This document shows, piece after piece, positions 19,877 through 49,963 of a stretch of 64,000 nucleotides of DNA; position 1 is the first letter of the stretch; each line of letters starts with the position of its first letter. Source of the stretch: Candidatus Rifleibacteriota bacterium (GTDB taxonomy: Bacteria; Muiribacteriota; Ozemobacteria; Ozemobacterales; Ozemobacteraceae); assembly GCA_024710355.1 (NCBI GenBank), contig JANJUX010000033.1:22641-86640 (forward strand), given 5' to 3'. The notes under the pieces were generated by a model. That model was not told the origin of the DNA, searched no databases, and saw only the letters and a program-made list of their open reading frames with translations. A program made the translations under genes and the position numbers.

Positions 19877-20455
19877 TTAATTGCAGACCTGCATCGAATG
19901 ATGGGCACCGATCATTTTCATCAGCTGCTCGGGAGTATCTGCAACCTGAAACAGGTTCAGATGCTCGACACGAATGGTTTTCTGGGCAATACCATGTTGA
20001 AACAGTGCCAATAACGGCCCGAAAAAGTTGTCGATGTTCAGCAGAAACATCGGTCGATCGTGCCTGGCAAGCTGCTTCATCGTCAACAGGTCGAAAAATT
20101 CGTCGTAAGTCCCGATGCCGCCAGGCAGAGCGACAATGTAATCAGATTTGTCGAGCATCGCCTGCTTGCGAGGCCTGAGATCTTCGACAGCCTGCATTTC
20201 ATCGAGATCAGGGTGTTGAATGCCCCGGTCGATCATGTATTGTGGAACGACACCGATCAGTCGACCACCGGCGCTTTTGTGCGAATCGGCGACAATCTTC
20301 ATCAACCCGCAGGTAGTGCCGCCATAAAGCACCGAAAAATGGTTTTCGGCAAGCAGTCTGGCGAACTCAGCCGCGCCGCTTTTGATTCTTTCGGAAACAT
20401 CGGAGCTGGAAGAACAGAAAATACAGACAACCGGTTTATTGCTTGTTGGATTCAT
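19877..20455 (-). CDS. LOG-family (TIGR00730) nucleotide phosphoribohydrolase.
   Basis: The motifs [13 protein letters not shown] and [10 protein letters not shown] are the LOG GGGxGxM / PGGxGTxxE signatures. The protein is 192 aa. Confidence 0.8.
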
Positions 20456-20624
20456 AGTAACCGGATTATACCACTTACATCGCAGGTTGTATCGTTACGC
20501 CGGCAGATTTACGCGCGGGCGCCTGCAGGCAGTTGTATTGTTGATTTTTCGAGGGCGGCCGCTTATAATTGCCTCTCAAACAGTTTCGCCAATTCTTAAA
20601 TTTTGTCGTCGACGGGAGAAACAG

Positions 20625-26517: not shown

Positions 26518-26530
26518 AGAAGGTGATTAT

Positions 26531-33490: not shown

Positions 33491-33706
33491 ATTTTGCCTC
33501 TCATACTGCCGTTGCCGCAGGTTTGAATCGACCATCGCCGGCGGATAAAATCACTAATTTTAATGTGACGGGAAACCACCCGTCTTCGAGCATAGCAGAA
33601 GAGTTTGCAGTGTTCCAGAAGGTTTTTTGCAGAATTTTAAAATATTTTTTCCCTTTTTTGTTTTTCAGTTGATTTACCTGTGAAACCAAAAAACGGAGGC
33701 GAACTT

Positions 33707-34180
33707 ATGATGTGCTGCAATGAATGCCCGCTCAACCCGGTAACAGGTTACGCCGAAGAACGTTGCCGACGACCGGTCTGCCTGCAGTCAGAAACGCGCT
33801 GCAAAAGTGGCTTCTGCACCAGCGAACTGGGTGGCCGCTGCCAGCTCGACTTTTATGTGGTCAGAAAGCTGTATCACGGCGACCAGCTGGCCGAAAAACT
33901 CGTTTTTGCCTCGCTGAAATCGGCCATTCTCGGGCGTGATCGGTCTCTTGTGCTCGCAATTTTTCAATCAGCGAGAGAGACCCTGCAGCCGCTGCTCTGG
34001 CGCTGGCTCGAAGTCTACGAGCCCCGCAGTCTCTGGCTTTTGAACCCGGTATTTTCGTCGGCCGGCCTGAGCCCTCTCGATACCTTCAACGAACTCGAGC
34101 CACGGCGTGAAAAGTATCTGAAGGCAATCATGCATAACCCATGCACTGTCAGACAGGCTAGAACGATCTGCGGTCTTTGA
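33707..34180 (+). CDS. Hypothetical protein with an N-terminal CCxxCxLN motif (paralog A).
   Basis: The protein starts MMCCNECPLN. A GGAGG sequence lies 7 nt before ATG 33707. The C-terminal region LWRWLEVYEPRSLWLLNPVF aligns with paralog B. Confidence 0.5.
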   Translation: MMCCNECPLNPVTGYAEERCRRPVCLQSETRCKSGFCTSELGGRCQLDFYVVRKLYHGDQLAEKLVFASLKSAILGRDRSLVLAIFQSARETLQPLLWRWLEVYEPRSLWLLNPVFSSAGLSPLDTFNELEPRREKYLKAIMHNPCTVRQARTICGL

Positions 34181-34193
34181 AAGGAGTTTTCCA

Positions 34194-34694
34194 ATGACCA
34201 CGAACTGCTGCCATAAATGTCGGTTAAATATTGCTTCAACGGCTTTTGACAGCCGAATGTTCACTGTTGTTCCGCTGCCGGCCAGAGATATCTTTATCTG
34301 CAGGCAAAATGGTGCGGGCAGGGCTTTACCCGGGGCTGCACACGCTGAGGTCCGTCTTCTCTGCAGTCGCGATCTCTGGGTGTTGAGCTTTATCGGACAG
34401 AACGAAGCTTTTGCGGTCGAACAGGCCAGTGCAACTCTCGACCGGCTGGTTGCAGGCGGTCACTCAGAACTGCTCTGTCATCTCTTCGAAAATGCCGGCT
34501 ACGAAGTCAGGCGCGACCTGTGGCTGCGCATGACCAGCCTTTACCCGGGCCGGCTTTATCTTTTCGACGCCATTTTTGAACGTGGCTCGCTCGCACCTCT
34601 TGAAAAAGACCGGGCCCCCGAAAAAATGTATTATTACCAACAGCAGATGCTGTTTGGCATCGAAGGTTTAAACCATGAACTCGAAGATTTATAA
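34194..34694 (+). CDS. Hypothetical protein with an N-terminal CCxxCxLN motif (paralog B).
   Basis: The protein starts MTTNCCHKCRLN. An AAGGAG sequence lies 7 nt before the ATG. LWLRMTSLYPGRLYLFDAIF matches paralog A. Confidence 0.5.
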   Translation: MTTNCCHKCRLNIASTAFDSRMFTVVPLPARDIFICRQNGAGRALPGAAHAEVRLLCSRDLWVLSFIGQNEAFAVEQASATLDRLVAGGHSELLCHLFENAGYEVRRDLWLRMTSLYPGRLYLFDAIFERGSLAPLEKDRAPEKMYYYQQQMLFGIEGLNHELEDL

Positions 34695-35346
34695 TCAAAA
34701 AATGACTGCCGGCAAAAAATATTCGATACAAATGCTTATCTCGGGCGGGCAAACGGGCGTAGACCGCGCCGCACTCGATTTCGCTATGGCCATGAAGATT
34801 CCGTGTTCGGGCTGGTGCCCGGCAGGCCGGCGGGCAGAAGACGGCCCCATTGCCGATTGTTACCCGCTGCTCGAAGCCTCTTCTGAACTTTACCAGCAGC
34901 GCACCCGCCTCAACGTCAGAGATTCTGACGCCACGCTGATCATTGCAGACAGTTCGCCGTCAAATGGCACCCGTCTGACAGTCGAATATTGCCAGAAAAT
35001 GCGCAAACCGTTTCATATTCTTAATTCTGAAGCATTTTTTGACCGGCCCCCAAAACTAAAGGCCCTGAGCTCCCCAGCAATAGAGGTGCCTGAGAATGAG
35101 TCACACCGGCAGAAAAATACCGATAACCTTAGCGATGCCGAGTGGTTTGAAGTGGCTGAAACCCTGAACTGGCTGCATAAAACCAGGCCGGGCATTCTCA
35201 ATATTGCCGGGCCAAGAAAAAGCGAAAGCCCCCAGACAGAACTGCTGGCCCGATCGCTTCTGAGAATGCTTTTCGTCCCCTCAAAAATGTCTACACCAGT
35301 CTGGCCACCCAGAAGACCGATCACCAGAACCCTAAATTTCGGCTAG
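34675..35346 (+). CDS. SLOG-superfamily protein of the 'putative molybdenum-cofactor carrier' (PF12694-like) family.
   Basis: LISGGQTGVDRAALDFAMAMKIPCSGWCPAGRRAEDGPIADCYPLLEASSELYQQRTRLNVRDSDATLII...LNIAGPRKSESP matches the family consensus ISGGQTGxDRAAL...GGWCPxGRxAEDG...RTxxNVRDSDxTL...NVAGPRES. The start is uncertain among ATG 34675, 34702 and 34732. Confidence 0.65.
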   Translation: MNSKIYNQKMTAGKKYSIQMLISGGQTGVDRAALDFAMAMKIPCSGWCPAGRRAEDGPIADCYPLLEASSELYQQRTRLNVRDSDATLIIADSSPSNGTRLTVEYCQKMRKPFHILNSEAFFDRPPKLKALSSPAIEVPENESHRQKNTDNLSDAEWFEVAETLNWLHKTRPGILNIAGPRKSESPQTELLARSLLRMLFVPSKMSTPVWPPRRPITRTLNFG

Positions 35347-35440: not shown

Positions 35441-36004
35441 TTACCTGATGATTTTCAGAGAAAAACCGCTCTTTCCGGCAGATTCGCCGAGCTTGTTCTG
35501 AAATGGGTAATCATCGACACTTTGCTCATTCAAGAAAAAGGAATCGGTGGCGGCAGTCGTGTCAGTCTGACTCCAGTCCCAGGTTCTGGCTTCGCCGGTA
35601 TAAATCTGAAAGCTTGAGTTAGAAGCCAGATTTACCGAAGCCTGCCAGAACTGCTTGCCGGCGCCTGTGCCCCAGAGATGCTTTCTTGTCGTGGAATCGT
35701 AAATATCGCTGCTTCTAAGAAACCCTTCGGTTTTAAGAGTTTCGAGAACCTTGGCAATTGAAGCCGGAGCATCAGCATGGTCAGGGTCGAAATTTTCTTC
35801 CCAGGGCTGCCATGTATGAGAAGCTATTTTCATAAGGTCGAAAGCTTCACGTATCTGACTGATGTCTGTGTTTAAGCCAGCTTCAGCCAGACGACGATTA
35901 AGAATCTCTTCTGAAGGACCAATCTGTTGGGCAATAATAGCACCAATCGACAGGAGGATCAGAAGCAAAAGAATAACAGTTCCGGCCCGGTTATTTTTTT
36001 TCAT
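35441..36004 (-). CDS. Membrane-anchored periplasmic protein, hypothetical. There is a weak resemblance to a pseudopilin/GspG-like fold.
   Basis: MKKNNRAGTVILLLLILLSIGAIIAQQ is a signal-anchor without the canonical GFTLIE motif. The C-terminal part is Trp/Asp-rich. Confidence 0.45.
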   Translation of the reverse strand: MKKNNRAGTVILLLLILLSIGAIIAQQIGPSEEILNRRLAEAGLNTDISQIREAFDLMKIASHTWQPWEENFDPDHADAPASIAKVLETLKTEGFLRSSDIYDSTTRKHLWGTGAGKQFWQASVNLASNSSFQIYTGEARTWDWSQTDTTAATDSFFLNEQSVDDYPFQNKLGESAGKSGFSLKIIR

Positions 36005-36107
36005 GGTCCCAACCATAACCAGCAATAGTCCTATTGCGTAATATCTTTAACAACTGCTAGAATTATAACGATTTGCAAAACATGAGGGAAGCCGTATAAA
36101 AAAAAGG

Positions 36108-37502
36108 TTGGCAGTGATTTTTTGCTCGATTCTTCTGTTATTTATAACAGATGAGCTTTTTTCCAGCTCTCAAACACCACCGAAAGCTTCAAACATTGAA
36201 TTGGCGCATCTCAGACAGACCAGAAATGCTTCCGACAGTCTGTCTTTAAAAGCCGAAATGGCACGCAGCAAGGCTGCCGCCAGAATTTTCGGGGGCAAAA
36301 GAGTAGTCAACTTCACCCCCCGTCGCGATTTCCTCGGAACAAGAGAGTTTGAGCTGCAACGAATTATTGGGCTCAAGCCGGCAAGCGACAGCCTGCAACT
36401 GGCGCTGGAACATAAAAAGCAGTTTTCCCGCCCCAGACTGGAACTCGATGAATTTATCGCACTCTGCCACTGGGAAACCGGAAATATAGAAGAGGCCGTA
36501 AAACTAAGTAATGAGGTTCTGAACAAGAAAGAAAGTGTCAGCCTCCGGCAAAAGCTTTTCAATTCAGAGCTCAATCGTGGCTATTACGACACCGCAAAGC
36601 ACCACCTGAAACACTCAGGGCTCCCCAGAATCGCCCATTTAAAATCTCTCCTGCATTTCTTCTATTTGCGTTCAGGCCTGTATGCTTTTCTTTTCTGGGT
36701 GTTTTTACTGGTTACTTTAGGTGCGCTCGCCATCAGATTTTTTCTGCAATTATTCCCATTTGAAAAATTCAGTCAATTTTTCTTTCACAGACATAAAATA
36801 CAAACCACGACCGGTTTCCCTCTCAGTGAACCTGCAGTTATTTCACAAAAACCTGCTGGCAGCGAAAATCAGAGCAGCACGTCCGAAACAGTCACAAATC
36901 AGGACTCAACGCCCCTCCAGGGAACTAATTCCGACCTTCCTGCCAGCAAAGCTCAGTCAACGACACGACTACAGATGTTTGAAGAACTGGTTACCAGCAA
37001 AATGCTGCGGGTTATCGGTGTTTCATCGCAAAAAGAAAGTTTCAACCGCCTGGCACTGGCTCTTAAGCTTGCGATAAATTTTTCCAAAGCAGATTTTCAG
37101 ACCCTTATCATCGATGCCAACAGTTCAAAACCATATATCCATGAGATCAAAACCTGTAAAAGTTCTCCCGGCCTTTCTGACTGCTTCAATCAGACATTCG
37201 AAATCGAAACTTTCTGTCAGAAAACCAGTAGCCCCAACCTTAGAATTCTGGCTCGCGGCAGCCAGGTCATGCCATTGGCTGTTCTGCAGCCACATCAATG
37301 GAAAAGCCTGATACAGGCCTGTCAAAAAAGCTTCGACATCGTAATCGTCAATTTTCCCGGCATAATCAACCTGAAAGATAATCCAGAAACCCTGCAATCG
37401 GTTGAAATACTGGTGATAGATGGCACGGCAGACCCAGAAATCGAGATATACAAACCAATTGGAGCTGAAACAGAGCTTTATTTCTGGAACAGGAAGGGTT
37501 GA
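36108..37502 (+). CDS. BY-kinase/ParA-like P-loop homologue with a degenerate Walker A (pseudo-kinase) and one TM helix. Low-GC gene.
   Basis: The C-terminal domain reads MLRVIGVSSQKESFNRLALALKLAINFSKADFQTLIIDAN...SPGLSDCF...NLRILARGSQVMPLAVLQPHQWKSLIQACQKSFDIVIVNFPGI. It parallels the CpsD/Wzc-type BY-kinase consensus (VIxVTSxxPGEGKST...LLIDxD...GLSxxL...NLxVLxxGxxPPNP...YDxIIIDTPP), but the GEGKST motif is replaced by QKESF. It starts with TTG, and the start is uncertain. Confidence 0.5.
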   Translation: MAVIFCSILLLFITDELFSSSQTPPKASNIELAHLRQTRNASDSLSLKAEMARSKAAARIFGGKRVVNFTPRRDFLGTREFELQRIIGLKPASDSLQLALEHKKQFSRPRLELDEFIALCHWETGNIEEAVKLSNEVLNKKESVSLRQKLFNSELNRGYYDTAKHHLKHSGLPRIAHLKSLLHFFYLRSGLYAFLFWVFLLVTLGALAIRFFLQLFPFEKFSQFFFHRHKIQTTTGFPLSEPAVISQKPAGSENQSSTSETVTNQDSTPLQGTNSDLPASKAQSTTRLQMFEELVTSKMLRVIGVSSQKESFNRLALALKLAINFSKADFQTLIIDANSSKPYIHEIKTCKSSPGLSDCFNQTFEIETFCQKTSSPNLRILARGSQVMPLAVLQPHQWKSLIQACQKSFDIVIVNFPGIINLKDNPETLQSVEILVIDGTADPEIEIYKPIGAETELYFWNRKG

Positions 37503-37506
37503 GGAC

Positions 37507-40500
37507 ATGAAACAACAGACTTATAAACGGCTTAAAACAACAATAAACCGCCTGCAGCTCATGATCACCATTGCAATAATATTTTTCACAACTGTATTAA
37601 TTCGGTCTGTAGAAGCCCAGCCTTATCCTCCAATCAACATCACAGTAAATTCCCTGGCGACTTACAACCAGATAACCTGGGGGCATCACCCGCAGAACAC
37701 CGCAGGCTATGTCAAGAACTACCAGATCTGCCGGGGCATCAGCTACGGAGCCACCGCTCAGATTGCCACTGCAGCGGCTACTGCAACTTCTTTCAACGAC
37801 AATACCGTCGGACATGCCTTTGAAAAAGAGTTTTATTACACTGTACGCGCCCTCGGAACAGACGATCTGCCATCGGCAGATTCAGAACAGGTCATGCGCT
37901 TTCTGCCCACAGTAGGGCTTACCGGCACGGGCATGGGTATCAATACAATCAACAGCGTTCAATATGGCTCCTGGAAACCTTATCCCGGCCAATGGACAGA
38001 CACATATACGTATATCAGCACTACCCCAAACGGAACGAGCAATGGCTCCGATTACCCTCACAGGCAGATTATACGGGCAAGTCGGGCACTGTCTCTTACT
38101 GAAGGAACTACCTACTACCTGCGCGTCAGGATCGATGCTCCAGACTGGTGGGGAAGTCCAGCAGCGAGAAGAGCAGTTTCTTATTCCAGTTCCCTGCCAT
38201 TTGTCATTAACTCAACGGTTCCATATGAGGATAACGCCTCTTCGACTTACTTCAACAATTCACAGAACCGGGTTATGGCCGAACCACTTGCCACCGGCGG
38301 AGTCGGAACGACGCTTTTCAGCAATAACGGGGGTAATTTCTGGCGTATCCGCAGACCCGTGGGTGTCAGCGCTCATGTCAATAACCTTGTTTTTCCATCC
38401 GTAACCCCGAATGCTGCTACCCCAGCCAGAATTAATTCGCCGTGCCGCGTTGTGATTACAGGTATACCTGCGGGCGAAATTGCCGCAACTCGTGCTGACG
38501 ACGAGGTCAGGGTTGCCGACCAGTATGGCAACGAGTTGCCCTGCGTCGTTTATAACGAAACGACCGCAGCCGGATCGGTTACAGGTTTTGACGTTCACTT
38601 CATCACCAGCCAGGACGGCACAGCCCAGGAAATCTACTGGATTTACTGGGGCAACCCCGATGCATCCGTTCCGACTTATACAAACCCGGGGTTTTCTGAT
38701 AACTTTTCAACAACTTCGCAGTTCGCGGTTTCTCCATGGTATTCGCGCCGAATTCACCGCGGCGGTATCGAAACAGCAAGCGTACCTTTCAACGACCCGA
38801 GCAGGTTGATTCCAGATCCGCCCAGTCCCATAGATGACATGTCGGCATCGAAGGTCCTGGGCTTTGTATTTCCTCATTTCGACTTTGCAACCAATACGGT
38901 CAACGTTTCTACCAACGGCTACATCTCGTTCCCGCCAGATTCCCAGCCACTAAACGATATGGCTGTTTTTACCGGGGCGGGTCCCAACCGTTTCATCGCA
39001 CCTTTCTGGTGCAATCTTATGGAAAACGATGCCGTTCCCTCGAATGCCGGGCTTTACTATCACAATCTCGACAGCGGCACAGCAGCAAGACATCGCGCCA
39101 TGTTCACCTGGCGGGCCAATCGCTTCAATGCTACAACCGAAAGTTACATTTTTCAGGCGGCCCTTTATCGGCAGGGTGACATAGCCTTTCGCTACGAAAC
39201 TCTCAATTTCGGCGCATTAACAACAGTTCCATCACTCTCGGGCGACAACCCGATCAATGTCCCGCCACACCACACAGCCGGAATAAGTGCGACTGACGGT
39301 AATCGCTGGCTCGGCATCACCGATGGCACGACCAGCCAGGAAGTCGTTTCCCTTCGCGATGGCTCAGGAAGAAATGTTATTCATTATTTTCAGTCCTGCC
39401 ACGGCTGGACAATAAATCTTGGCTACACCGACCCGACAAACACCTGTTCCATGGCCGGGCCAACCTGCGTCGCCGATTACGAATCGAGAATTTTCGATGG
39501 CCGCAGTTCTGCCCCGACCTGGACCAATATGGAATACCAGATTACTGGTACCGGTCTTATAGACCTGTATGTCAGAAGCTCGGGCACCACGAACTTTCCG
39601 GCCTGGAACGCCGGGCACCTTGTTGGCGCGAACCTGGCTGCAAGCACCGGGGTAATAAATCTGACGCTGCCGACAGACCGTTATGTTCAGTATAAAGCCG
39701 TCTTCAAAAAGAGTAACAGTGGCGAAAACCCGGTTTTGCGGCGTGTCAAATTCAGTGTCGGTTATGTAACGATTGACAGCGTCACAAATCAGTATAACAA
39801 CCTCGACGTATCGCAGGGCCAGACATTTCTGGCATCGATGACCTACACGAACAAATACTCGAACCCTGTCGACACGATTACAGCCTCCTTGACCTTTACC
39901 CCCGCCTCTGCAATTCAGACATGGGTTCAGACTTCGCCCCTGCCGACAGGTGTTCTGACAGATACTTCAGCCACCGTCAGCTTTTCGATCTCCGTCGACC
40001 AGAACTCAGGCAATCTCGATGCTTGGACTGTAGTCAACGGCTACCTCTCAGCCGGGGACGGATTAGCGACTCTTACAAATTCAACCGCGCTCGTAACCAG
40101 CCAATACCGCATCCGAAGAAAGGCAGATCTTATCATAAATTCTGTCGATACCACCTTCGAAAAAGTTAACAAGGGCCAGGGTGGCATACCGGTTCAGATG
40201 ACGATCAGCAATGGCTCCCCCCAGGTTCCGCTCGTCCTGCAGACTGCCTCGCTGACCTTTTCTCTTGGGCAATACACACTTTCTCCTGAATTTGTTTTTG
40301 ACCCTGCGGACCAGGGCCTTTTTGGCTCATACTTTTACACGACGACAGGCAACCCACCGCCTTTTCCGACGCAGGCCAGTGCAACCCGGCTCGATAGTAC
40401 GGTAAATTTTAACTGGGGTGCTGCCAGTCCAATTCCCGGAGTTATCAGTGCCGATTATTTCGCCGTGCGCTGGAGTGGCTATGTAATCCCTGAATTCAGT

Positions 40501-43500
40501 GAAGACTACACATTCTATTTCTGGGCCGACGATGGCGTAAGAGTTTGGGTTAACGGGCAGATTATCATCAATTCGTGGGTTACATCAGCATCCGAAAAAA
40601 CTTCTGTGTCTGTGCCACTCACAGCCGGAGTTCCGGCAGAGATTGTCATAGACTATTACGAGCGCGCCAGCAATGCCAGAGCCGAATTAAGCTGGTCATC
40701 GCCGTCTCAGGCCAAACAGACTGTTCCGACTGCTCGCCTCAAGCCGGCATATCTGCCGGTCATTCATGGTGGGCAATCAATAACTCTCAATTATACCGTG
40801 GCAGTTCAACCAACATCTCCTTCTGGGGTTGCATATATCAAGGGCATCGCGTCTGGCACTAACGCCTGGGTGCCTGGCCTGGTAACAGACTCAAACAGCC
40901 CGCTCGTATTCGACTCCTGGATAATTCAATCGCCGGCAAGCCTTTCTATCGGGCTGATAAAGGCTCCTGCGGTAGTTTACCGTGGTCAGGCAAATGTTCC
41001 GGTTGAAGTTGAAATAATCAATACCGGAGAAGCTGATGCCCAGATTGCCTCAATTCCTCTTTTCATCTCACTTGGAGACTATGAAAACATAATACCAGGG
41101 CAAATAATGCCGGTAACGATTACCGGCGGACAGAGCAAATTCATCAAGGTTCTGGTCTCGATTCTCGAAAGTACTGCGACCGGCAGTGCGATTATCGACG
41201 CAGAAGTATCAGGAACCGACGTCAACAATGGTTCGTCACTTTCAACCGCTGGTGCAGCAGTGCCAGGTGAATGGACAGTTCTTGCAGAAAAGATCCTTTC
41301 GTATAAAGATCCATCGTATCTTTATCCTTCCAATGCTTTTTCGCAGCCTGACTCTGGCGAAACCTTCATCTATGCCCTTGCAGAAAACCTGGTTCCTCTC
41401 AAAGAATACGGAATCCGCTGGTATGATGCCTCCGGCTCCGAGATTATCTCTGCAACCACGATAGGCTTTTCTGATAATACCGGCAAACTTGCCGGAGAAT
41501 GGTCGATAACCTCTGCCACAGACTTTGGTGTTTACACAGTTAAAATAACTAACCCGGTGAACACCTATTCGCCCTCACAAACCAACTTCAGAGTCGTGAC
41601 CAGCGCTTCGGTTTCAGCAACACTTGAATTGCCTCAGAAGGTTTCAGTCGGGCAGGCATTTCAGGGCAGGATGGTCATAACTAATATCGGTGGTGCAGAG
41701 GCTGCCGGCATGGTACCAGACCCACTCACCATAGCCGGGCCTGGAACTGCAAATCTCACGTCTGGCCCATCACCAGCAGCAATAGACGTTCCGGGTGAAA
41801 GCACCGCCACCATAACCTACAACTATACGGCAACTGGTCAGGGCAATTTTCAGATTTCGGCTGGAGACAGTGGTTTTGATGCCAGCAATGACAAAGCAAT
41901 CCAGGCGGCCTACATCGATTCAAACCTTTGTCTGATTCAAACCCCTGCCATAATAGATATCGTCTCCCTCACTGCAACACCTACAATTGTCTACCGTGAT
42001 CAGAAAAATATTGAAGTGATGATGGCCCTGCAGAATACTGGGGAAGCTGACGCAATAATCAGTCTCGCCGATCTTCGTTCACCGCCCAACAATAACCTTT
42101 CGTTTGCCACATTCACCCTGGCATCCCCGACGATCCCGGCAACTGTGCCGGGCAACAGTACTGCAACCTTTACCTTCAGAGTAAATATCAACGGCACTGC
42201 CCCGGCCGGACCAGCTGTAATGACGGCAAGAGCCAGTTATACAGATGCGAACAATCCCACAACTCCCGCCACGCTGATCAACCAGACCCTTTCCTGGACA
42301 ATCAACACCGCGAACCTTCTCCTTTACATCAATAACACTTTTACGACCCCATGTTACGCATTCAATGACGGATCAACCGTATTCGCACGAGCTTCCGGGC
42401 TTGCAACCAACACCAACGTCAGAATACGATTTTATGAAAGCACAGAGCCATACCCACCCGTAGACGTTGGCGTTGGAATTTTGACCCCGCTCAACACCGG
42501 CGATACCGGAATAGTGTCTCACCCCGGGCATCTGATACCGCCTGGAACTGACAAACTGCAAAGATGGATGGCAGTTGTAGACGATGGCGATGACGCGACC
42601 GTAGGCAATATCTTTGCGGTACAGTTCTTTGATGTCTTCAGCCTGGCAACCTTCTCAGTAAGCCTCGAAATTGCCAGCCCCACATGCTTTGTCGGTGATC
42701 TGGTAAACGCCAATCTGACGATTAACAATATCGCGACCTGGCCAACCAACGTTCGTCTTTACCTTAATTCATTTAATCACAGCTACCTTGCCCACAGCGC
42801 CGGCACATTTAACAGAATCAGCGCTCAAACCGGGGTTTACCAGCCGTCTCCAAGCGGCTCTTCCAGGACTTACAATTCTGTACTGCAGGCAACTAACGAT
42901 TCGGCAATTGAAGGCAGCTCATACATCACCATTCCGGGCAATTCTTTACGTTTGTATGATGACAGTTTCGGGGTAACGAACTACTACACCAATTATCCTC
43001 TGCAGATAAACGCCCAGAGCCCCACACGGGTTTTTCGCAACAACTTCAGGCTGGAAACTCTGCCACAACCTTCTGCTGAGCCAGGATTACGTGGAGAATA
43101 TTATAATCTGATAGCAGTTAACGCAACTCAACCAATGCCGATCAGTGACCCGGCAACCACAACGATCAATGCGAATGTCAACTTCAACTGGGGAGGGGGC
43201 TCGCCGGCTCCAGGGGTCGTAAACACTGATTACCATGCAGTCCGTTGGAGTGGCCTGGTAACTCCTGACTTCAGTGAAAATTATACCTTTTTTGCCCGCA
43301 CCGATGACGGTTTTAGATTGTGGGTGAATGGCAATCTGATTTACGAAGATTGGGTCACACGGGCAGCTATAGAAAGAAGCGGTTCTATAGCTTTAACAGC
43401 CGGAGTACCTGTACCGATTGTTTTAGAAATGTTTTCAAATACTGGCACCTCGATCGCTGAACTAAGATGGCAAAGCCCATCAGTAGCCAAAAGCATTATA

Positions 43501-46500
43501 CCCGCTGCCAACCTGAGTTATATCCCATATCAGTCACCAATCTGGGATTTCGGCATTGCGGAACCCGGCAGCATCAGCAGTAAAATTGCAAATCTGATTA
43601 CCAATACCGGGAACCATAATCTTGAACGCATCAGGCTTTCGCAGGTTGACCTGCGAAAATCCGTTTCAGAGTCTATTTCTGGGTCGAATCTAACAGCTGA
43701 CCCGCCATTTCCATTCAATCTTCCGGTTGAGAACAACATGACTTTCGAAGCTTCGCTTCTCATACCGTTTTACCAGCCCCCCGGAGTTTACGTTGCAACA
43801 ATGGCAATATTCGAAGATCATAATGATTCTCAGGCCCTTGATCTTGCCCGACAATCCCGCGAGCCCCACACATTGATTTTTACAAAAGTTGAAGTTAAAG
43901 CTGTTGCCAAAGCAGTGCTTACCGATAACTTCATCGATCTCGGGGTCATAGAAGCAGGAGCGACAAGCACTGAACAACAGATCGAGATCATTGGTGTCGG
44001 AAATCAGAATCTCACCGATCTTAAGTTCGACGACATGTCTGCGCATGGCATCACCATTACGCCCCTGATTTTCGGGGCGATGGCATACAATGGCTATCAA
44101 ACCGCCAGCATTTCGGTAACTGTTCCACTGGCACAGATCCCGGGAGTTTTTTATGCAACCGGAACGGTACGCAACGATATACCAGGCGGAGCAAGCGAAG
44201 ATTTTACGGTTAAGTGGGCGGTTGGCACGCAAACTCTAGCGGTTAGCCCCGAGCTGATGGCACTTGGCAATGCAACCCCGACCTTCACTTTGCCAACCTT
44301 CGTGACCACCATCGACAATACCGGTGAGCTGCCGCTTTCCAGACTGAAAGGTGTTTCTACAGAGTTTATCAACCAGAGTCAGGCCGGAACAATAGCTTCA
44401 GACAATGTCAACCTCACTTCGCCATCATTAATCGATGTTGCCGATTCAGAAACCACTCCCGTATACGTTTATGTACCCGGCGGCAAGGCAACCGGAACCT
44501 ATCTTGCGTCATTCACATGGTATGAAGATCTGAATCTCAATCAGAATCCTGAAGTTTTTGAAGCAAAGGACATGGCAATCGCCTCATTCGTCATTCAGGC
44601 TTTTTACAGACTCTATTCACTCAAATCAACCGAAGACTTTGGCGGTGTCAAGCCAGATACGACCAAAACTGTCTCGGTTGGCGTCAGAAATGCCGGCAGT
44701 TTGCCCATAACCCGTCTCAGATTTATTACCAGCGATCTTTCAGACGGAACCGACATTTTTGACGATGCCCATATGACAGTTCCGGCCGATGTACTGAATA
44801 TTGCTCCCGGCGAACTGCGATATTTCGACCTCAGTGCGGCCGTTCCTGCTGCCCACACAAAGGGGGTCTTCATAGGTTCTATGACCGTCTACGGTGATCT
44901 CGACACCGATGATACTTTCGACACTTCTGATGAGCCCTGGTGCGATATCAAGCTCCGAATTGAAATCGGCGATCAGGCAATCGCAATAACGGCACCAGTA
45001 GAAGCGGTTATGGCCGGCAATGCCGCATCGTCAACCAATCAGATTTCTGTGACCACGAAAAATACTGGCTCGATGGCTCTGTCGAGAGTAAGAACGCAGG
45101 GAACTGACCTGATTGCAACTTCCGGTGCTGTTATTGCATCAACAAGCTTTCAATATTCACCTTCTGCACTTCTTGGCTCGCTGGTAATAAACCAGAGTCG
45201 TTCTAATTCGGCGTGGGTATTCGTGCCGTTTGGCCAGTCTCCAGGTCTTTATGAGGGCTCCATCTGGTCATGGGAAGATGCCAACAACGATGGCATAAGA
45301 CAACCCGAAGAAACTGCAGCCTCGATTCCTGTCAAGTTGACCGTTACGACTCTTAAAGCCGTCCAGACTTCACCCACATCTATCAATTTAGGAGTTATGG
45401 CTCGCGGCGACCTGGCAACTGCTTCGGTACTGGCGCAAAACGTCGGAAACACCGGACTTGTCGATGCGCGATGGGAAAAAGGCATTCTGAACGGGCCAAC
45501 CCCAATCGCTGCGACCAGCATTGCCATTACCCCGGATCCGGTAGGAGTAGTTGTTGCACCACCTGTGGGCCTACCGGAAAACATTGTTTCAACGCTGACT
45601 TTGACAATTCCGACAACTACATCCGATGGTCTTTATAACGGTGTAATGGTTTTCTTCGATGACGACATCGACCCGGCTCTCAATGTTTTCAATACCGGCC
45701 TTGAACAGTTTGCCAATCTGACAGTCACCGTTCAGGTTGTTACCCCGTTCTTCACGGTAAACCCCGATCCGATAGTTATTCCAGCAAGTGACCCAACCGG
45801 ACCCACCGCATCAGGTGCCTTTACAATAAGCAACAGCGGCAGCATCGCCTTCAAAAAACCCCGTTACAGTATTTCAAATCTCGCTAACGGAGCCAGCACG
45901 ATAGCCTCTTCAACGGTTAAAATTGTGCCCGCTGCGATCAGCGCTCTTCTGCCTGGTCAGAACGAAGCGGCAGAGATTTCTACGACCGTTTCACCGGCGA
46001 CAGCGTATCCCCCGGGGGTTTATTCAGGCGTCTTTACAATCTATGACGACCGCAACAACAACAATGTCAGAGACGCCTACGAATCGTTCCTCGCCGTTCC
46101 TGTCAATCTCACCGTCAATTCATATCCACGACTTGATATAATTCCGGCAAGCTTTGACGCAGGTAAAATTGCCCGCAATACCTTTTCGCCCACACTGCGT
46201 CTTGGCTTCAGAAACACCGGAAATACGCCATTGAACGGCCTGGCCTGGACAAAAAACGATATGTTCAAAGCTCCCGGCATTTTAATACCGGTCGCCAGTC
46301 TGAGTTTCTCGTTTTCCCAGCCCGAGCCGATCAGTCCTGGGGTAATTGCTACGGCAGAACTCATAATCGGAAGGATTTCTCCGGACCAGGAACTCGGCGG
46401 GCCATACGGACCAGTCGAACAGTTTTTGCAGGCCGGAACAGCTGTCGATTCAGTCTTCATTGAGTGCGAAATAATACCTGGCGGCCCTCAGGGGCTTGAT

Positions 46501-47001
46501 AAGGGCAGTGTCTGGCAGGAGGTCGCAACAAAGACCTTTCCGGTTGCCCCATTGACCAGCAACTACCTCCTTTCGGCCTATGTCTGCCCAGGCTCAGGTT
46601 CAGCCAGAATTGGTTTTCTCATGACCGACGAAGTAGGTATCCAAACGGGCTATAGTGGCATTGAAGTCGGCGAGAACGGTAATGCCAGCCTTATTGGCGC
46701 AACCGGAGCAGTGCTTGAAAAACATCTGGTTGAATATGCCCCCGGTGTAGAATTGCCATGGTACAGAGTATTTATACAGTTTTCCTACGGTTTCGACTCT
46801 GCAGTTGCAAGCAAAACATACATTCTTCTGCAGAATACCGGCCCGGAAGGCCTCGGACATGCGGCATGGTTCGATGGCATTCAACTTGAGAAGGCCAAAC
46901 TCAATCAAACAAAACCAACATCGTGGAGCGACAGAGCCAAAATCATTGCGCCGGGCCAGGCATCAGATCTCTCAGGCAGAAACAGCTATTACGAGTGGTA
47001 A
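37507..47001 (+). CDS. Giant secreted surface protein (3165 aa) with two PA14 domains and numerous Ig/CARDB-like beta-sandwich repeats (putative adhesin or surface-layer component).
   Basis: The signal peptide is MKQQTYKRLKTTINRLQLMITIAIIFFTTVLIRSVEA, and GAGG lies 3 nt before the ATG. PA14-1 spans about 40315-40745 (GLFGSYFYTT...NFNWGAASPIPGVISADYFAVRWSGYVIPEFSEDYTFYFWADDGVRVWVNGQ...). PA14-2 spans about 43084-43525 (GLRGEYYNL...NFNWGGGSPAPGVVNTDYHAVRWSGLVTPDFSENYTFFARTDDGFRLWVNGN...). The motif (V/I)xN(T/A/V)G(N/S)xxL/A recurs 15 or more times. The protein is Thr/Ser/Asn/Gly-rich and has many N-x-T/S sites. Confidence 0.85.
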   Translation: MKQQTYKRLKTTINRLQLMITIAIIFFTTVLIRSVEAQPYPPINITVNSLATYNQITWGHHPQNTAGYVKNYQICRGISYGATAQIATAAATATSFNDNTVGHAFEKEFYYTVRALGTDDLPSADSEQVMRFLPTVGLTGTGMGINTINSVQYGSWKPYPGQWTDTYTYISTTPNGTSNGSDYPHRQIIRASRALSLTEGTTYYLRVRIDAPDWWGSPAARRAVSYSSSLPFVINSTVPYEDNASSTYFNNSQNRVMAEPLATGGVGTTLFSNNGGNFWRIRRPVGVSAHVNNLVFPSVTPNAATPARINSPCRVVITGIPAGEIAATRADDEVRVADQYGNELPCVVYNETTAAGSVTGFDVHFITSQDGTAQEIYWIYWGNPDASVPTYTNPGFSDNFSTTSQFAVSPWYSRRIHRGGIETASVPFNDPSRLIPDPPSPIDDMSASKVLGFVFPHFDFATNTVNVSTNGYISFPPDSQPLNDMAVFTGAGPNRFIAPFWCNLMENDAVPSNAGLYYHNLDSGTAARHRAMFTWRANRFNATTESYIFQAALYRQGDIAFRYETLNFGALTTVPSLSGDNPINVPPHHTAGISATDGNRWLGITDGTTSQEVVSLRDGSGRNVIHYFQSCHGWTINLGYTDPTNTCSMAGPTCVADYESRIFDGRSSAPTWTNMEYQITGTGLIDLYVRSSGTTNFPAWNAGHLVGANLAASTGVINLTLPTDRYVQYKAVFKKSNSGENPVLRRVKFSVGYVTIDSVTNQYNNLDVSQGQTFLASMTYTNKYSNPVDTITASLTFTPASAIQTWVQTSPLPTGVLTDTSATVSFSISVDQNSGNLDAWTVVNGYLSAGDGLATLTNSTALVTSQYRIRRKADLIINSVDTTFEKVNKGQGGIPVQMTISNGSPQVPLVLQTASLTFSLGQYTLSPEFVFDPADQGLFGSYFYTTTGNPPPFPTQASATRLDSTVNFNWGAASPIPGVISADYFAVRWSGYVIPEFSEDYTFYFWADDGVRVWVNGQIIINSWVTSASEKTSVSVPLTAGVPAEIVIDYYERASNARAELSWSSPSQAKQTVPTARLKPAYLPVIHGGQSITLNYTVAVQPTSPSGVAYIKGIASGTNAWVPGLVTDSNSPLVFDSWIIQSPASLSIGLIKAPAVVYRGQANVPVEVEIINTGEADAQIASIPLFISLGDYENIIPGQIMPVTITGGQSKFIKVLVSILESTATGSAIIDAEVSGTDVNNGSSLSTAGAAVPGEWTVLAEKILSYKDPSYLYPSNAFSQPDSGETFIYALAENLVPLKEYGIRWYDASGSEIISATTIGFSDNTGKLAGEWSITSATDFGVYTVKITNPVNTYSPSQTNFRVVTSASVSATLELPQKVSVGQAFQGRMVITNIGGAEAAGMVPDPLTIAGPGTANLTSGPSPAAIDVPGESTATITYNYTATGQGNFQISAGDSGFDASNDKAIQAAYIDSNLCLIQTPAIIDIVSLTATPTIVYRDQKNIEVMMALQNTGEADAIISLADLRSPPNNNLSFATFTLASPTIPATVPGNSTATFTFRVNINGTAPAGPAVMTARASYTDANNPTTPATLINQTLSWTINTANLLLYINNTFTTPCYAFNDGSTVFARASGLATNTNVRIRFYESTEPYPPVDVGVGILTPLNTGDTGIVSHPGHLIPPGTDKLQRWMAVVDDGDDATVGNIFAVQFFDVFSLATFSVSLEIASPTCFVGDLVNANLTINNIATWPTNVRLYLNSFNHSYLAHSAGTFNRISAQTGVYQPSPSGSSRTYNSVLQATNDSAIEGSSYITIPGNSLRLYDDSFGVTNYYTNYPLQINAQSPTRVFRNNFRLETLPQPSAEPGLRGEYYNLIAVNATQPMPISDPATTTINANVNFNWGGGSPAPGVVNTDYHAVRWSGLVTPDFSENYTFFARTDDGFRLWVNGNLIYEDWVTRAAIERSGSIALTAGVPVPIVLEMFSNTGTSIAELRWQSPSVAKSIIPAANLSYIPYQSPIWDFGIAEPGSISSKIANLITNTGNHNLERIRLSQVDLRKSVSESISGSNLTADPPFPFNLPVENNMTFEASLLIPFYQPPGVYVATMAIFEDHNDSQALDLARQSREPHTLIFTKVEVKAVAKAVLTDNFIDLGVIEAGATSTEQQIEIIGVGNQNLTDLKFDDMSAHGITITPLIFGAMAYNGYQTASISVTVPLAQIPGVFYATGTVRNDIPGGASEDFTVKWAVGTQTLAVSPELMALGNATPTFTLPTFVTTIDNTGELPLSRLKGVSTEFINQSQAGTIASDNVNLTSPSLIDVADSETTPVYVYVPGGKATGTYLASFTWYEDLNLNQNPEVFEAKDMAIASFVIQAFYRLYSLKSTEDFGGVKPDTTKTVSVGVRNAGSLPITRLRFITSDLSDGTDIFDDAHMTVPADVLNIAPGELRYFDLSAAVPAAHTKGVFIGSMTVYGDLDTDDTFDTSDEPWCDIKLRIEIGDQAIAITAPVEAVMAGNAASSTNQISVTTKNTGSMALSRVRTQGTDLIATSGAVIASTSFQYSPSALLGSLVINQSRSNSAWVFVPFGQSPGLYEGSIWSWEDANNDGIRQPEETAASIPVKLTVTTLKAVQTSPTSINLGVMARGDLATASVLAQNVGNTGLVDARWEKGILNGPTPIAATSIAITPDPVGVVVAPPVGLPENIVSTLTLTIPTTTSDGLYNGVMVFFDDDIDPALNVFNTGLEQFANLTVTVQVVTPFFTVNPDPIVIPASDPTGPTASGAFTISNSGSIAFKKPRYSISNLANGASTIASSTVKIVPAAISALLPGQNEAAEISTTVSPATAYPPGVYSGVFTIYDDRNNNNVRDAYESFLAVPVNLTVNSYPRLDIIPASFDAGKIARNTFSPTLRLGFRNTGNTPLNGLAWTKNDMFKAPGILIPVASLSFSFSQPEPISPGVIATAELIIGRISPDQELGGPYGPVEQFLQAGTAVDSVFIECEIIPGGPQGLDKGSVWQEVATKTFPVAPLTSNYLLSAYVCPGSGSARIGFLMTDEVGIQTGYSGIEVGENGNASLIGATGAVLEKHLVEYAPGVELPWYRVFIQFSYGFDSAVASKTYILLQNTGPEGLGHAAWFDGIQLEKAKLNQTKPTSWSDRAKIIAPGQASDLSGRNSYYEW

Positions 47002-47076
47002 AACTCTTTAACGGGCGATAAAAAAAGCAGGCCCGGTTAGCTCCCGGGCCTGCGTCAGCTTAGAAAAGACTTTGGG

Positions 47077-48384
47077 TCAGTAGTGATACTGCAGCATGCT
47101 CTGCAGGCGGTAGTCGTAGCCAAAGAACATGTCGTTGCTCAGTGCAATCGGGGCAGCCAGGGTCAGCGACATGCCAGGTTTAACATGATAGCGCATGCCA
47201 AGAGTCAGGTCGGTGCTTCTGCCGTTGTTAACGCGGTTATAGAAGTTTACTTCACCCATGAAGGTGAAAGATTCGTTGGCACTGTAGTCGAAGCCGGCGT
47301 TCACGAATACGCCTTCGTGGTTGGTATTGCCGTCGCCAGCCTGATAACCGCCGTTGAGGTGAATATTGCCGCCTTCTTTGCGCTTGCTCGAAAGACCGGC
47401 GAAAATTTCCCAGGCGTTGTTGGTGTCGGTATTGCCGATATCGATATCGCTGGTCGGAAAAATCGCGCCCAGACCAAGGCAAGAGGCCATATCGTCGTTC
47501 TGCGAAGTGAATTTGAGGCGCAGCGATGCATCACCCATGCCTGAATCAGAGCCATCTCTGAAATTATAGGTGACCGGCGCAAAAACATCGTAAGATTCAA
47601 ACGGCAGCTTGAATGCCACTTCGAAATTTTCGCCGGCGTAGGTCATCAGCATCGGAAATTCCCAGTAGTCGGCATCTTCGCCGCCTCTCAGGCGATTACC
47701 ATCGCGGCGGGTGATTTTGTTCCAGACCATGCCAAAACCGGTCGAAAAGAGATTTTCACCGAGCGGGTAGGCGGCAAAGGTATTGACCAGGCCTGTCAGA
47801 CCGTTGAAGGTAACATGATTATCGTCAGATGCCTTGCGAACCTTGCGTTCGCCCGGAAGAATAATCTGCGGCAGGCCAGATTCAGAGTAAAGTACGGCAT
47901 CATCACTCTGAGTTACCGGCGGCAGCGGCAGAGCAGTCGCCGGTGCCGGATTCGGGGCAGTCTGAGGCGGCGAAGCGATATAGCGGGTGCGCTGGCGATA
48001 GGTCACGCCCTGACCCTTTTCATAACTGGTGCCCGGAATCTGCAGTTCCTGGCCAACTTTGATCTTCGCGGCATTGCTGATACCGTTGGTCTTGGCGATT
48101 TCTTTCCATTTCGTGGTTGTACCAAAAAACTTCTTCGAGATCGAACCCAGGGTATCGCCCTTTTTGACAGTGTAAGTCTGATAACCGGTCGAAACCGAAT
48201 CTTCTTCGACCCAGCTGCTGTCGGCACTGGTCGAAGGCTCGGCTTCGTAGTAGTATTCGGTCTCAGGCGGTGGTGCCATCGAATAGCCTTCCGGAATCTG
48301 GTAATCATACTGGCCAAAGGCCGAAGTTGCCAGAGCAAGAACCAGAAAACCAGTCAGAAGGTATGAATTATGCCGTTTATTCAT
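47077..48384 (-). CDS. LysM-domain outer-membrane beta-barrel protein.
   Basis: Signal peptide MNKRHNSYLLTGFLVLALATSAFG; AAGGA lies before the ATG. The LysM domain is YTVKKGDTLGSISKKFFGTTTKWKEIAKTNGISNAAKIKVGQELQIP. The C-terminal ~260 aa have alternating hydrophobic beta-strands ending ...LQYHY (an aromatic terminus). Confidence 0.7.
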   Translation of the reverse strand: MNKRHNSYLLTGFLVLALATSAFGQYDYQIPEGYSMAPPPETEYYYEAEPSTSADSSWVEEDSVSTGYQTYTVKKGDTLGSISKKFFGTTTKWKEIAKTNGISNAAKIKVGQELQIPGTSYEKGQGVTYRQRTRYIASPPQTAPNPAPATALPLPPVTQSDDAVLYSESGLPQIILPGERKVRKASDDNHVTFNGLTGLVNTFAAYPLGENLFSTGFGMVWNKITRRDGNRLRGGEDADYWEFPMLMTYAGENFEVAFKLPFESYDVFAPVTYNFRDGSDSGMGDASLRLKFTSQNDDMASCLGLGAIFPTSDIDIGNTDTNNAWEIFAGLSSKRKEGGNIHLNGGYQAGDGNTNHEGVFVNAGFDYSANESFTFMGEVNFYNRVNNGRSTDLTLGMRYHVKPGMSLTLAAPIALSNDMFFGYDYRLQSMLQYHY

Positions 48385-48621
48385 GGAACTTCTGTTCCTT
48401 TCAGTTTTAAGAAACCATAAATGTTTCGTAGAATCGGGTTGATACACTTTCCCGTTTTCTTCTATCGGTCGAATTGTGAGAATCTTTAATCAACCAACAA
48501 TTTTTTTATGCAACCCCCGGGGCTTTATTTTGCCTTCTGATGTAGTATGAAGTTTGACACATTCTTTCGGGCTGTGATAAGTTTTTGTGCACAGTTCAAT
48601 TAATACGACAGGAACCGCTTA

Positions 48622-49941
48622 ATGAAAAAAACCTTTGTAGTGGATACCAACGTCATTCTGCACAGCCACCAGGCGCTGTTTTCGTTTAAAGAACACGATG
48701 TAGTAATTCCACTCGGCGTAATTGAAGAACTCGACCGTTTTAAAAGCATCAACGACGAAAAGGGCCGTGAAGCCCGCCAGGCTTCGCGCGAACTCGACAA
48801 CCTGCGGAACAAGGGCAATCTGTCAACCGGGGTAACCCTCGAAAGCGGCGGTACCCTGCAGATCATGATCGACTCTGAAGATGAGATGCCATACGGCTTT
48901 GGCCTCGACACCCACAAGGTCGACAATCGTATTCTTGCCTGCGCTCTGACCCTCAAAAAGGCTGGTCGCAACCCGATTCTGATCAGCAAAGACATCAACT
49001 GCCGCATCAAAGCCGATGCCCTTGGCATTGCAGCAGAAGATTTCGAAACCAATAAAATCGATATCGACGAACTTTACACCGGCTGGCGCGAACTGGTAAT
49101 GCCCGTCAGCCGTATTGAAGCGTTTCTGCGTGACGAAGGGCTGGCATACGACCAGAACGACCTGTTCAGAAATGAATTCATTCTGCTCAAAGCCGCCGAA
49201 AACGAAAATAAAACCGCCCTTGCCAAATATGACGGCGTTCAGAAGAAACTTCTGCCGCTCTTTCACCTGAACTCAAAGCCATGGGGCGTTGAACCGATGA
49301 ATCTGCAGCAGAAATTCGCCATCGAGCTACTGCTCTGTAACGAAATTCAGCTGGTAACCCTCGTGGGTCGCGCCGGCACCGGCAAAACCCTGCTGGCACT
49401 CGCCTGCGGTCTGCAGAAAACCATCGACGAGCATCTGTTCAGAAAACTGCTCGTCAGCCGCCCCATCATGCCACTCGGCAAAGATATCGGCTATCTGCCG
49501 GGTTCCAAAGACGAAAAGCTCAGTCACTGGATGCAGCCGATTTTCGACAATCTCGAATTTGTCATGGACCGCCTCTACAAGAATTCCGATGACGTCGACA
49601 AAAAGATCCGCTTCCTGATTGAATCTCAGAAGGTTCAGATCGAAGCGATCACCTACATCAGAGGCCGCAGTATCCCGAAACAGTATCTGATCGTCGACGA
49701 AGCCCAGAACCTGACCCCGCATGAGGTAAAGACGATCATCAGCCGCGCCGGCGAAGGCACCAAGGTCGTGCTGACCGGTGACCCTTATCAGATCGATAAC
49801 CCTTACCTCGACAGTTCATCAAACGGCCTTAACTTCGTAATTGAGAAGTTTAAAGACCATAATCTGTTCGGTCATATCATTCTGCACAAATCCGAACGCT
49901 CTTCACTCTCTGCACTGGCTTCTGAACTGCTGCAAAACTGA
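48622..49941 (+). CDS. PhoH2-type protein (N-terminal PIN domain plus PhoH-like ATPase; YlaK-like).
   Basis: The PIN domain starts FVVDTNVILHSHQALFSF...VVIPLGVIEELD. The Walker A motif is LVGRAGTGKTLLALA. Confidence 0.85.
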   Translation: MKKTFVVDTNVILHSHQALFSFKEHDVVIPLGVIEELDRFKSINDEKGREARQASRELDNLRNKGNLSTGVTLESGGTLQIMIDSEDEMPYGFGLDTHKVDNRILACALTLKKAGRNPILISKDINCRIKADALGIAAEDFETNKIDIDELYTGWRELVMPVSRIEAFLRDEGLAYDQNDLFRNEFILLKAAENENKTALAKYDGVQKKLLPLFHLNSKPWGVEPMNLQQKFAIELLLCNEIQLVTLVGRAGTGKTLLALACGLQKTIDEHLFRKLLVSRPIMPLGKDIGYLPGSKDEKLSHWMQPIFDNLEFVMDRLYKNSDDVDKKIRFLIESQKVQIEAITYIRGRSIPKQYLIVDEAQNLTPHEVKTIISRAGEGTKVVLTGDPYQIDNPYLDSSSNGLNFVIEKFKDHNLFGHIILHKSERSSLSALASELLQN

Positions 49942-49963
49942 TAAAAAAAGAGGTGTCTGGCTG

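Follow-up and report, generated by a model that had tools for sequence, protein, structure and literature searches.

A 64,000-nucleotide stretch of contig JANJUX010000033.1 from a Candidatus Rifleibacteriota bacterium (hereafter the window) contains two adjacent genes on the forward strand, one encoding a membrane protein with a degenerate kinase domain, here called gene A, and the other encoding a very large secreted protein, here called the giant. The original prediction had regarded the two as a dedicated surface module, and both open reading frames (ORFs) are present where it had placed them. The giant, listed as an ORF of about 9.6 kb, starts at ATG 37507 behind a GAGGA ribosome-binding site, and the 4-nt gap between the TGA stop codon of gene A (37500-37502) and this ATG consists of GGAC. 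With this start the giant has 3164 amino acids, one fewer than the 3165 counted previously, and is translationally coupled to gene A. A terminator scan showed no terminator-like site between the two genes, and a promoter scan of the locus gave no signal above that of shuffled sequence. A GC-rich terminator hairpin with a 10-bp stem (nine GC pairs) lies at 47027-47053, between the giant and a convergent LysM gene. A frameshift or assembly artefact in the giant, which had been a concern, is ruled out by full-length homologues of 3149-3164 amino acids, 59-95% identical, in at least seven independent assemblies. The exact giant allele was not on record in an exact-sequence look-up; under their NCBI names, two of its homologues come from Candidatus Rifleibacterium sp., and this genus belongs to the candidate phylum Rifleibacteriota. 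The features of the locus are collected in Table 1.

Table 1. Features of the gene A-giant locus and of its surroundings in the window
Feature	Position	Strand	Basis or remark
Two adjacent T2SS-E/PilB-PilT-type ATPase genes	13446-16552		First with MshEN domain
Type-IV-pilin-like gene, 194 aa, divergent from gene A	35441-36025	-	PDB profile search, alignment A4
A8 tract marking 70-bp indel	36098-36105	+	DNA alignment with L005, L010, L011
Gene A, two-transmembrane inner-membrane protein with BY-pseudokinase domain, 464 aa	36108-37502	+	ORF listing, translation
Gene A periplasmic helical-repeat (TPR-like) domain, aa ~29-170	36192-36617	+	AlphaFold2 (AF2) model, hydropathy
Gene A disordered cytoplasmic linker, aa 227-285	36786-36962	+	pLDDT <50
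Gene A BY-kinase-fold domain, aa 296-464	36993-37499	+	Foldseek, HMMER, family alignment
Degenerate Walker A, GVSSQKESFNR	37017-37049	+
Degenerate Walker A' (D-A-N)	37113-37121	+
Walker B equivalent, DIVIVNFPG	37335-37361	+
Giant gene, 3164 aa, mature protein 334.5 kDa, pI 4.7	37507-47001	+
Sec (SPI-type) signal peptide, aa 1-37, cleavage after VEA	37507-37617	+	Read from sequence
Hypervariable N-terminal region, aa ~38-300	37618-38406	+	Identity profile, dN 0.2-0.31
Possible NIDO-like domain, aa ~440-570	38824-39216	+	Coordinates read from sequence
PA14 domain 1, aa ~947-1075	40345-40728	+	Pfam PF07691
Second hypervariable region, aa ~1500-2050, including PA14 domain 2	42004-43656	+	Identity profile
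PA14 domain 2, aa ~1881-2000, inside second hypervariable region	43147-43506	+	Pfam PF07691
About eight diverged ~125-aa Ig-like repeats	43522-46476	+	Self-comparison, aa 2006-2940
C-terminal CBM-like jelly-roll, aa ~3002-3129, ending WFDG[IV]QLE	46510-46893	+
Conserved disordered tail PT[ST][WYF]...[IL]xSP.....D[LI]xGxxxY[YF][EQ]W-COOH	46915-46998	+	Family alignment
LysM protein gene	47077-48447	-	Convergent to giant
Pseudopilin-type operon	49841-52478

The AlphaFold model of the gene A product, built on 18 family sequences, comprises a first transmembrane segment (residues 2-21), a confidently predicted helical-repeat domain (residues 73-168, pLDDT about 90), a long second transmembrane segment (residues 174-215), a disordered linker (residues 227-285), and an alpha/beta domain (residues 302-460). 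The periplasmic domain, located between the two transmembrane segments, carries the family signature EEFIxxCxWxTG. The linker is hypervariable in sequence (nonsynonymous divergence, dN, 0.44-0.49), and its length ranges from zero to more than 300 residues across the family. No Pfam model whatever matched gene A, including Wzz (PF02706), GNVR (PF13807), and TPR. The C-terminal domain has the fold of the bacterial tyrosine kinases (BY-kinases), as had been proposed. The NCBIfam BY-kinase models match residues ~298-432 below threshold (eps_fam, E = 1.7e-14; Wzc, E = 9e-12), and a PDB search with a profile of nine close homologues retrieved the Wzc kinase domain 3la6 (E = 3.3e-10), followed by CapAB, Etk, VpsO, and BceF. 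In a Foldseek search against PDB, the top 50 matches were all BY-kinases (E about 1e-9, TM-score on target 0.54-0.69).

The catalytic motifs of this fold are lost. The Walker A segment GVSSQKESFNR departs from GxxxxGK[ST], its HMMER alignment to Wzc needs a three-residue indel, and GK[ST] occurs in none of the 18 aligned family members (alignment A2). The Walker A' segment is IIDANSS, with D-A-N in place of DxD, and the Walker B segment has N-FPG in place of D-TPP, with ILP or VLP in distant members. The C-terminal tyrosine cluster is absent as well: there are two tyrosines in the last 25 residues of gene A and none clustered in distant members. Measured against two relatives, the window gene has a ratio of nonsynonymous to synonymous divergence (dN/dS) of 0.16-0.18 over its whole length and of 0.15-0.17 over the P-loop domain; together with the lost motifs, this indicates a maintained pseudoenzyme rather than a decaying gene. 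Thus, in its fold, in the loss of the Walker motifs and the tyrosine-rich tail, and in its retention under selection, gene A is a BY pseudokinase in the same sense as EcpK of Myxococcus xanthus and HfsB of Caulobacter (PMC12004946), and it may be unable to bind or hydrolyse ATP. An exhaustive HMMER search over 1.84 billion representatives found about a dozen clusters (P0010-P0020, P0037, and P0146) that hold both the N- and the C-terminal domain; they are 18-29% identical to the window protein and all share its architecture. A scan of metagenomes with the narrower alignment A3 returned mostly the same lineage and ordinary BY-kinases.

The giant is an all-beta chain that starts with an Fn3-like domain and contains two PA14 domains, many Ig-like modules of the PapD/ASH type, and a jelly-roll resembling carbohydrate-binding modules (CBM). 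The Sec signal that had been reported is present, and it coincides with the sole hydrophobic segment of the protein (residues 13-37), there being no other transmembrane segment. The mature N-terminus, QPYPPINI, opens the Fn3-like domain, and the sequence AQP[YFL]PPIN is conserved across homologues. The two PA14 domains, expected about 2.8 kb apart, were recovered by Pfam with starts separated by 2802 bp (140.8 bits in two stretches against a gathering cut-off of 24; whole-protein E = 3.7e-41), and are ~45% identical to each other. The same searches, applied with NCBIfam to ten overlapping segments of ~400 residues, revealed nothing beyond PA14, so that the anticipated CARDB, DUF11, and Big domains found no Pfam match. 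The repeats are indeed Ig-like and carry the hydrophobic-x-N-x-G strand motif. However, there are about eight of them rather than more than 15, with ~25% identity to one another, and the one that was modelled belongs to the PapD/ASH/HYDIN type and not to a CARDB-like one. Self-comparison also detected a duplicated two-domain unit (residues 1139-1309 and 1476-1646). A possible NIDO-like domain matched the Pfam NIDO model weakly in one of eight homologous segments (E = 0.0045), and a PDB profile search of this segment gave no match. The protein is rich in threonine (10.0%), serine (9.1%), and asparagine (6.4%), as noted before, and contains 9.4% alanine.

Several known classes of large exported protein were considered and rejected. 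A motif scan of the giant detected no LPxTG, RTX GGxGxD, or CxEQ thioester motif; families of the type IX secretion system (T9SS) were not matched in Pfam or NCBIfam at E<=1; and the last 374 residues matched no Pfam or NCBIfam family save for a sub-threshold phage spike-fibre match. An RTX adhesin of the type I secretion system (T1SS) is excluded by the missing GGxGxD and by the N-terminal Sec signal. A protein sorted by LPXTG, PEP-CTERM, or T9SS signals is excluded by the absence of LPxTG, of a C-terminal transmembrane segment, and of any match to a sorting-domain family. An alpha-2-macroglobulin is excluded by the missing CxEQ, faint MG2 matches being seen in paralogues only.

The pair recurs well beyond the window. 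In the locus designated L027, gene A is 26% and the giant (3159 amino acids) 59% identical to the window proteins, and the pair is bordered by an altogether different set of genes, those for NAD synthase, beta-helix proteins, dapB, and a P-type ATPase; in L012, L026, and L028, gene A is 23-29% identical and again accompanied by a giant. In L029, a 5.2-Mb contig, a 259-residue protein that corresponds to the N-terminal half of gene A only lies directly upstream of a giant of 2968 residues, and in L031 gene A is located downstream of a giant of 3369 residues, as separate ORFs for the N- and C-terminal halves (E = 2e-32 and 2e-54). The pair is also kept in syntenic close relatives of the window. 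Since gene A and the giant stay together while their neighbourhood, order, and architecture change, they form a dedicated module, in agreement with the original prediction, and chance adjacency is rejected because the pair recurs in unrelated contexts. The part of gene A retained at every pair locus is its periplasmic N-terminal half. Such a pairing suggests a mode of handling or tethering giant envelope proteins that has not been described before.

Some of these loci have further features of their own. The halves of gene A in L031 (positions 20008-21694), as in L032, are two overlapping ORFs in different frames; in L031 they are followed by a gene for a 537-residue possible outer-membrane protein ending in LEAHF and then by ExbB-ExbD-TonB, and a 699-residue TPR protein is encoded upstream of the giant. 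In L029 (positions 346-9933), the operon upstream of the giant contains the half-size gene A along with three pseudopilin-like genes, a PilN-like gene, and a gene for a methyltransferase; it also encodes a 1643-residue protein in which a prepilin-type N-terminus is fused to Kelch-type repeats. In L030 (positions 900-18985), two tandem giant paralogues of 2747 and 2994 residues lack PA14 and have the same C-terminal tail; a homologue of the pilin-like gene of the window lies between them, and a gene for an Rce1/CPBP-type protease lies upstream.

BY pseudokinases have been proposed to act as phosphorylation-independent scaffolds through protein-protein contacts, and fused PCP-2/pseudokinase forms such as SMc01795 exist in addition to EcpK and HfsB; all of the known BY-kinases and BY pseudokinases belong to Wzx/Wzy polysaccharide pathways, where the pseudokinases pair with Wzz-type PCP-2 (polysaccharide co-polymerase) partners (PMC12004946). 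In a polysaccharide model, gene A would be a PCP-2 co-polymerase in reduced form, or a scaffold, serving an exopolysaccharide pathway encoded elsewhere in the genome, and the giant would be a lectin that binds the polysaccharide much as a matrix protein or a holdfast anchor does. This role would fit its two PA14 domains and CBM-like jelly-roll, and a TPR/polysaccharide-deacetylase gene lies 17 kb upstream of the cassette. However, gene A has neither a Wzz nor a GNVR domain, its periplasmic part of ~150 residues is too short for a PCP-2 cage, and the L029 lineage retains only its N-terminal half. Moreover, no Wza, Wzx, Wzy, or glycosyltransferase genes occur within 10 kb on either side of the cassette in the window, L027, L029, L031, or L012. 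We consider this explanation improbable.

Among known systems, EcpK and HfsB resemble gene A in that they are proposed to act as scaffolds through protein contacts at the cytoplasmic face of a two-transmembrane partner; both fused and split forms occur among known BY pseudokinases and in the gene A family, the latter in L031. In contrast to EcpK and HfsB, gene A has a periplasmic helical-repeat domain, its surroundings are free of polysaccharide genes, and it lacks the PCP-2 partner and the polysaccharide-export context of these pseudokinases, its conserved partner being the 3164-residue secreted protein. The PCP-2a and PCP-2b proteins Wzc, Etk, CapAB, and VpsO, which provide the best sequence and fold matches, share with gene A the order of transmembrane segment, periplasmic domain, transmembrane segment, and cytoplasmic P-loop domain. 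They differ from it in having catalytic motifs and a tyrosine cluster, an unrelated periplasmic domain, and an associated Wza.

No known anchor or secretion signal was recognised in the giant, as previously stated, but a conserved C-terminal tail had been overlooked. It occurs in 17 of 18 members of the giant family, including PA14-less paralogues with 29-44% identity, the exception being P0177, which ends in YSEH. The order at the C-terminus of the family is WFDG[IV]QLE, about ten residues, and then the tail. The tail is predicted to be disordered (pLDDT <50) and, among the sequences gathered in this analysis, is confined to giants. Strong conservation of an unstructured extreme C-terminus is the hallmark of a peptide that a partner recognises.

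The variation of the giant between strains is strongly polarized. In comparison with relatives that are 85-95% identical elsewhere, residues 1-300 and ~1500-2050 fall to 46-74% identity (54-74% for residues 1-300), dN in the two hypervariable regions is 3-5 times higher than elsewhere, and the C-terminal third is uniformly conserved. The giant P0163, 95% identical overall, is 97-100% identical in most 100-residue bins and 62% identical in the first (residues 1-100), with isolated bins at 62-89%, and the homologues P0170-P0173 have no PA14 domain 2. In L005, gene A is 97% and the N-terminus of the giant only 56% identical to those of the window, a contrast that indicates recombination at the boundary of the two genes. 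The mosaic pattern, as read from these alignments, suggests recombination-driven variation of exposed domains, and its polarity leads us to infer that the N-terminus and the region of PA14 domain 2 are exposed and ligand-facing, the C-terminus being the anchored end.

Such mosaic patches between near-identical strains are more typical of exposed proteins and thus argue against a model in which the giant, tethered by gene A, stays in the periplasm or forms an envelope layer of fixed length and binds peptidoglycan or another glycan. Nor does the giant have a thioester motif, a lipobox, or an S-layer homology domain. Still, its only recognised export signal is the Sec signal, with no outer-membrane translocation signal, its length is constant over a wide range of identity, and its repeats are old and diverged, unlike the expanding repeats of adhesins. 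This model appears to us rather improbable.

With moderate confidence, we favour the reading that the giant is a C-terminally tethered envelope protein of lectin type, and that gene A is its dedicated inner-membrane scaffold, derived from a BY pseudokinase. The variable N-terminus and the PA14 domain 2 region would form the distal, ligand-facing end of the giant, and the conserved C-terminus would be proximal to the cell. The periplasmic domain of gene A may receive, chaperone, or tether the giant, most simply through the C-terminal tail; it is the likely handler because no other part of gene A shares a compartment with the Sec-exported giant. The dead kinase domain may act as a cytoplasmic oligomerisation scaffold or switch, as proposed for EcpK and HfsB (PMC12004946). 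A type IV filament component would probably take part in the passage of the giant through the outer membrane, since a frequently adjacent pilin-like protein without Glu5 suggests passage or presentation by a type II secretion or type IV filament machine. A still more specific proposal, which we regard as speculative and doubtful, is that the tail motif D[LI]xGxxxY[YF][EQ]W-COOH is a new sorting or tethering signal whose receptor is the periplasmic domain of a family that recycles a dead BY-kinase ring as a cytoplasmic scaffold. In that case gene A would be a protein-handling descendant of the Wzc architecture, possibly coupled to type IV filaments.

Retention of a single giant adhesin under inside-out control is exemplified by the LapD-LapG-LapA system of Pseudomonas. 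LapD, located in the inner membrane, combines a periplasmic output domain with degenerate GGDEF-EAL domains and acts through the protease LapG, and LapA is a T1SS RTX giant adhesin retained by its N-terminus. The resemblance to the module proposed here would be one of functional analogy, with no homology and no components of that system at this locus. PA14/GLEYA lectin modules on a long Ig-like chain are known from MpIBP and from the fungal Flo/Epa GLEYA adhesins, which rely on T1SS or on anchoring through glycosylphosphatidylinositol (GPI) or the cell wall. The giant differs from these proteins by its Sec signal, its lack of RTX repeats, and its novel C-terminal tail.

The third conserved partner of the cassette is neither the LysM gene nor the pseudopilin operon but the pilin-like gene immediately upstream of gene A, which the original prediction had passed over and whose true start is probably an internal ATG giving MKKNNRAG. 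In L012, L026, and L030, homologues of this gene (E = 1e-22 to 1e-82) adjoin gene A or the giant. A profile search against PDB gave weak matches to the N-terminal helix only (Geobacter PilA-N, E = 0.006; PilA, E = 0.033; GspG, E = 0.073), in which G15 is aligned at position -1 and the invariant P37 at position +22. The glycine is followed by TVILL, Phe1 is missing, and Glu5 is present in none of seven homologues; loss of Glu5 is typical of tip pseudopilins such as GspK. The Pfam N_methyl model did not match. Given this and the weak PDB match, the pilin assignment remains a lead.

If the lead is followed further, the giant could be a PilY1-like cargo of a pilus tip or of type II secretion, with the Glu5-less pilin and minor pseudopilins priming or capping the fibre and gene A serving as a platform accessory and not as a tether. 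A large Sec-exported protein encoded beside minor-pilin genes, with a neighbour lacking Glu5, does recall PilY1 and GspK, and the pilin-like gene neighbours the pair in L012, L026, and the lineage of the window and separates the giant paralogues of L030. In L029 the operon with PilN-like, pseudopilin-like, and prepilin/Kelch genes is closed by the giant, and the window itself contains the two T2SS-E-type ATPases and the pseudopilin operon. On the other hand, the pilin match is weak, the giant lacks the beta-propeller and any other hallmark of PilY1, and no secretin was seen in the window. Adjacency of the pilin-like gene is not universal either, as it is missing near the pair in L027 and L031, and in the window two unrelated genes stand between the pair and the pseudopilin operon, whose association with the pair is not conserved in other contexts. 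We therefore regard this alternative as possible but unlikely.

The low GC content reported for gene A (45.4% against 52.1% for the window, with 46.8% in the pilin-like gene) was reproduced, and gene A is lower in GC than its locus in six of six lineages examined. Low GC is thus a trait of the whole family and does not indicate recent acquisition, so that recent horizontal transfer of gene A, as judged from GC, is ruled out. The GC content at third codon positions in the three cassette genes (35441-47001) is 47.5-50.9% (50.9% in the giant) versus 54-67% in the other genes measured, indicating a distinct codon usage for the module.

The TTG start ascribed to gene A is the sole start codon available to it. 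Alignment of the upstream DNA (window, 36098-36108; L005, 950-1062; L010, 5575-5760; L011, 3300-3420) revealed that the siblings L005 and L010 have an extra 70 bp after the A8 tract, a segment that contains TATAAT and supplies the ATG of MNKRLAV. These 70 bp are missing from the window and from L011, and in the window an in-frame TAA precedes the TTG by three codons. Hence the window gene starts with TTG because the indel removed the ATG used by sibling strains. The result could be an allele that is weak or switched off, or the indel could be the scar of a recombination event.

Returning to gene A as the scaffold of a tethered giant, a number of observations weigh against this reading. The TPR-like label of the periplasmic domain derives from the secondary structure of the AF2 model only. 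In L030 the two tail-bearing giants and the pilin-like gene are present and gene A is not seen in ~19 kb; conversely, a gene A homologue in L025 (18% identity) has no giant downstream, its upstream sequence extending 295 bp to the contig end. No copy of the pilin-like gene occurs in the 10 kb preceding the pair in L027. A basic residue (R/K) is conserved in the gene A family a few positions after the lost Walker lysine, which leaves room for non-canonical nucleotide binding. Synonymous divergence was saturated in the sliding-window dN/dS analysis of the giant, and diversifying selection is accordingly not demonstrated. Finally, the window allele of gene A, lacking the native ATG and the TATAAT segment, may be weakly expressed.

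The wider surroundings of the cassette are as follows. The LysM and pseudopilin genes had been described as flanking the pair; they are present, but neither is conserved with it in other contexts. The LysM gene and the pseudopilin operon are separated by a PIN-PhoH (PhoH2-type) gene (48622-49941). Its end is overlapped for ~100 nt by the listed form of the first pseudopilin ORF (49841-50875), whose true start is probably an internal Met before RRAVTFIE. A FecR-like gene (52500-53258) closes the pseudopilin operon, and another FecR-domain gene (11558-12874) precedes the pair of T2SS-E-type ATPases. A block of three Band_7 (SPFH) genes in a row with a P-type ATPase gene behind them (24814-30380) is syntenic in all close relatives; P-type ATPases are also convergent to the cassette in L025 and L027. 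Two tandem 166-residue proteins with cysteine-rich N-termini (CCxxC; 33680-34694) are distant paralogues (22% identity, E = 3e-9) with no family match, and their genes are kept in close relatives together with a gene for a 380-residue protein (32393-33535) and a cpYpsA (SLOG) gene (34675-35346).

The cassette is restricted to Riflebacteria-like uncultured bacteria from digesters and other metagenomes, and no account of it was found in the literature on Riflebacteria, Rifleibacterium, and Ozemobacter. The candidate phylum Riflebacteria is reported to rank first in the density of unknown gene families per genome (PMC10849945). If our reading is true, a family of BY pseudokinases tied to a giant secreted protein would carry the scaffold principle of PCP-2 and Wzc over to the handling of proteins, and would provide a handle on the export and retention of proteins of more than 300 kDa in diderms without signals of T1SS, T9SS, or the type V secretion system (T5SS). 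The conserved C-terminal tail is a simple candidate for a sorting motif. The strain-level mosaicism of the giant suggests that it is located where the bacterium meets other cells, phages, or substrates in anaerobic digesters.

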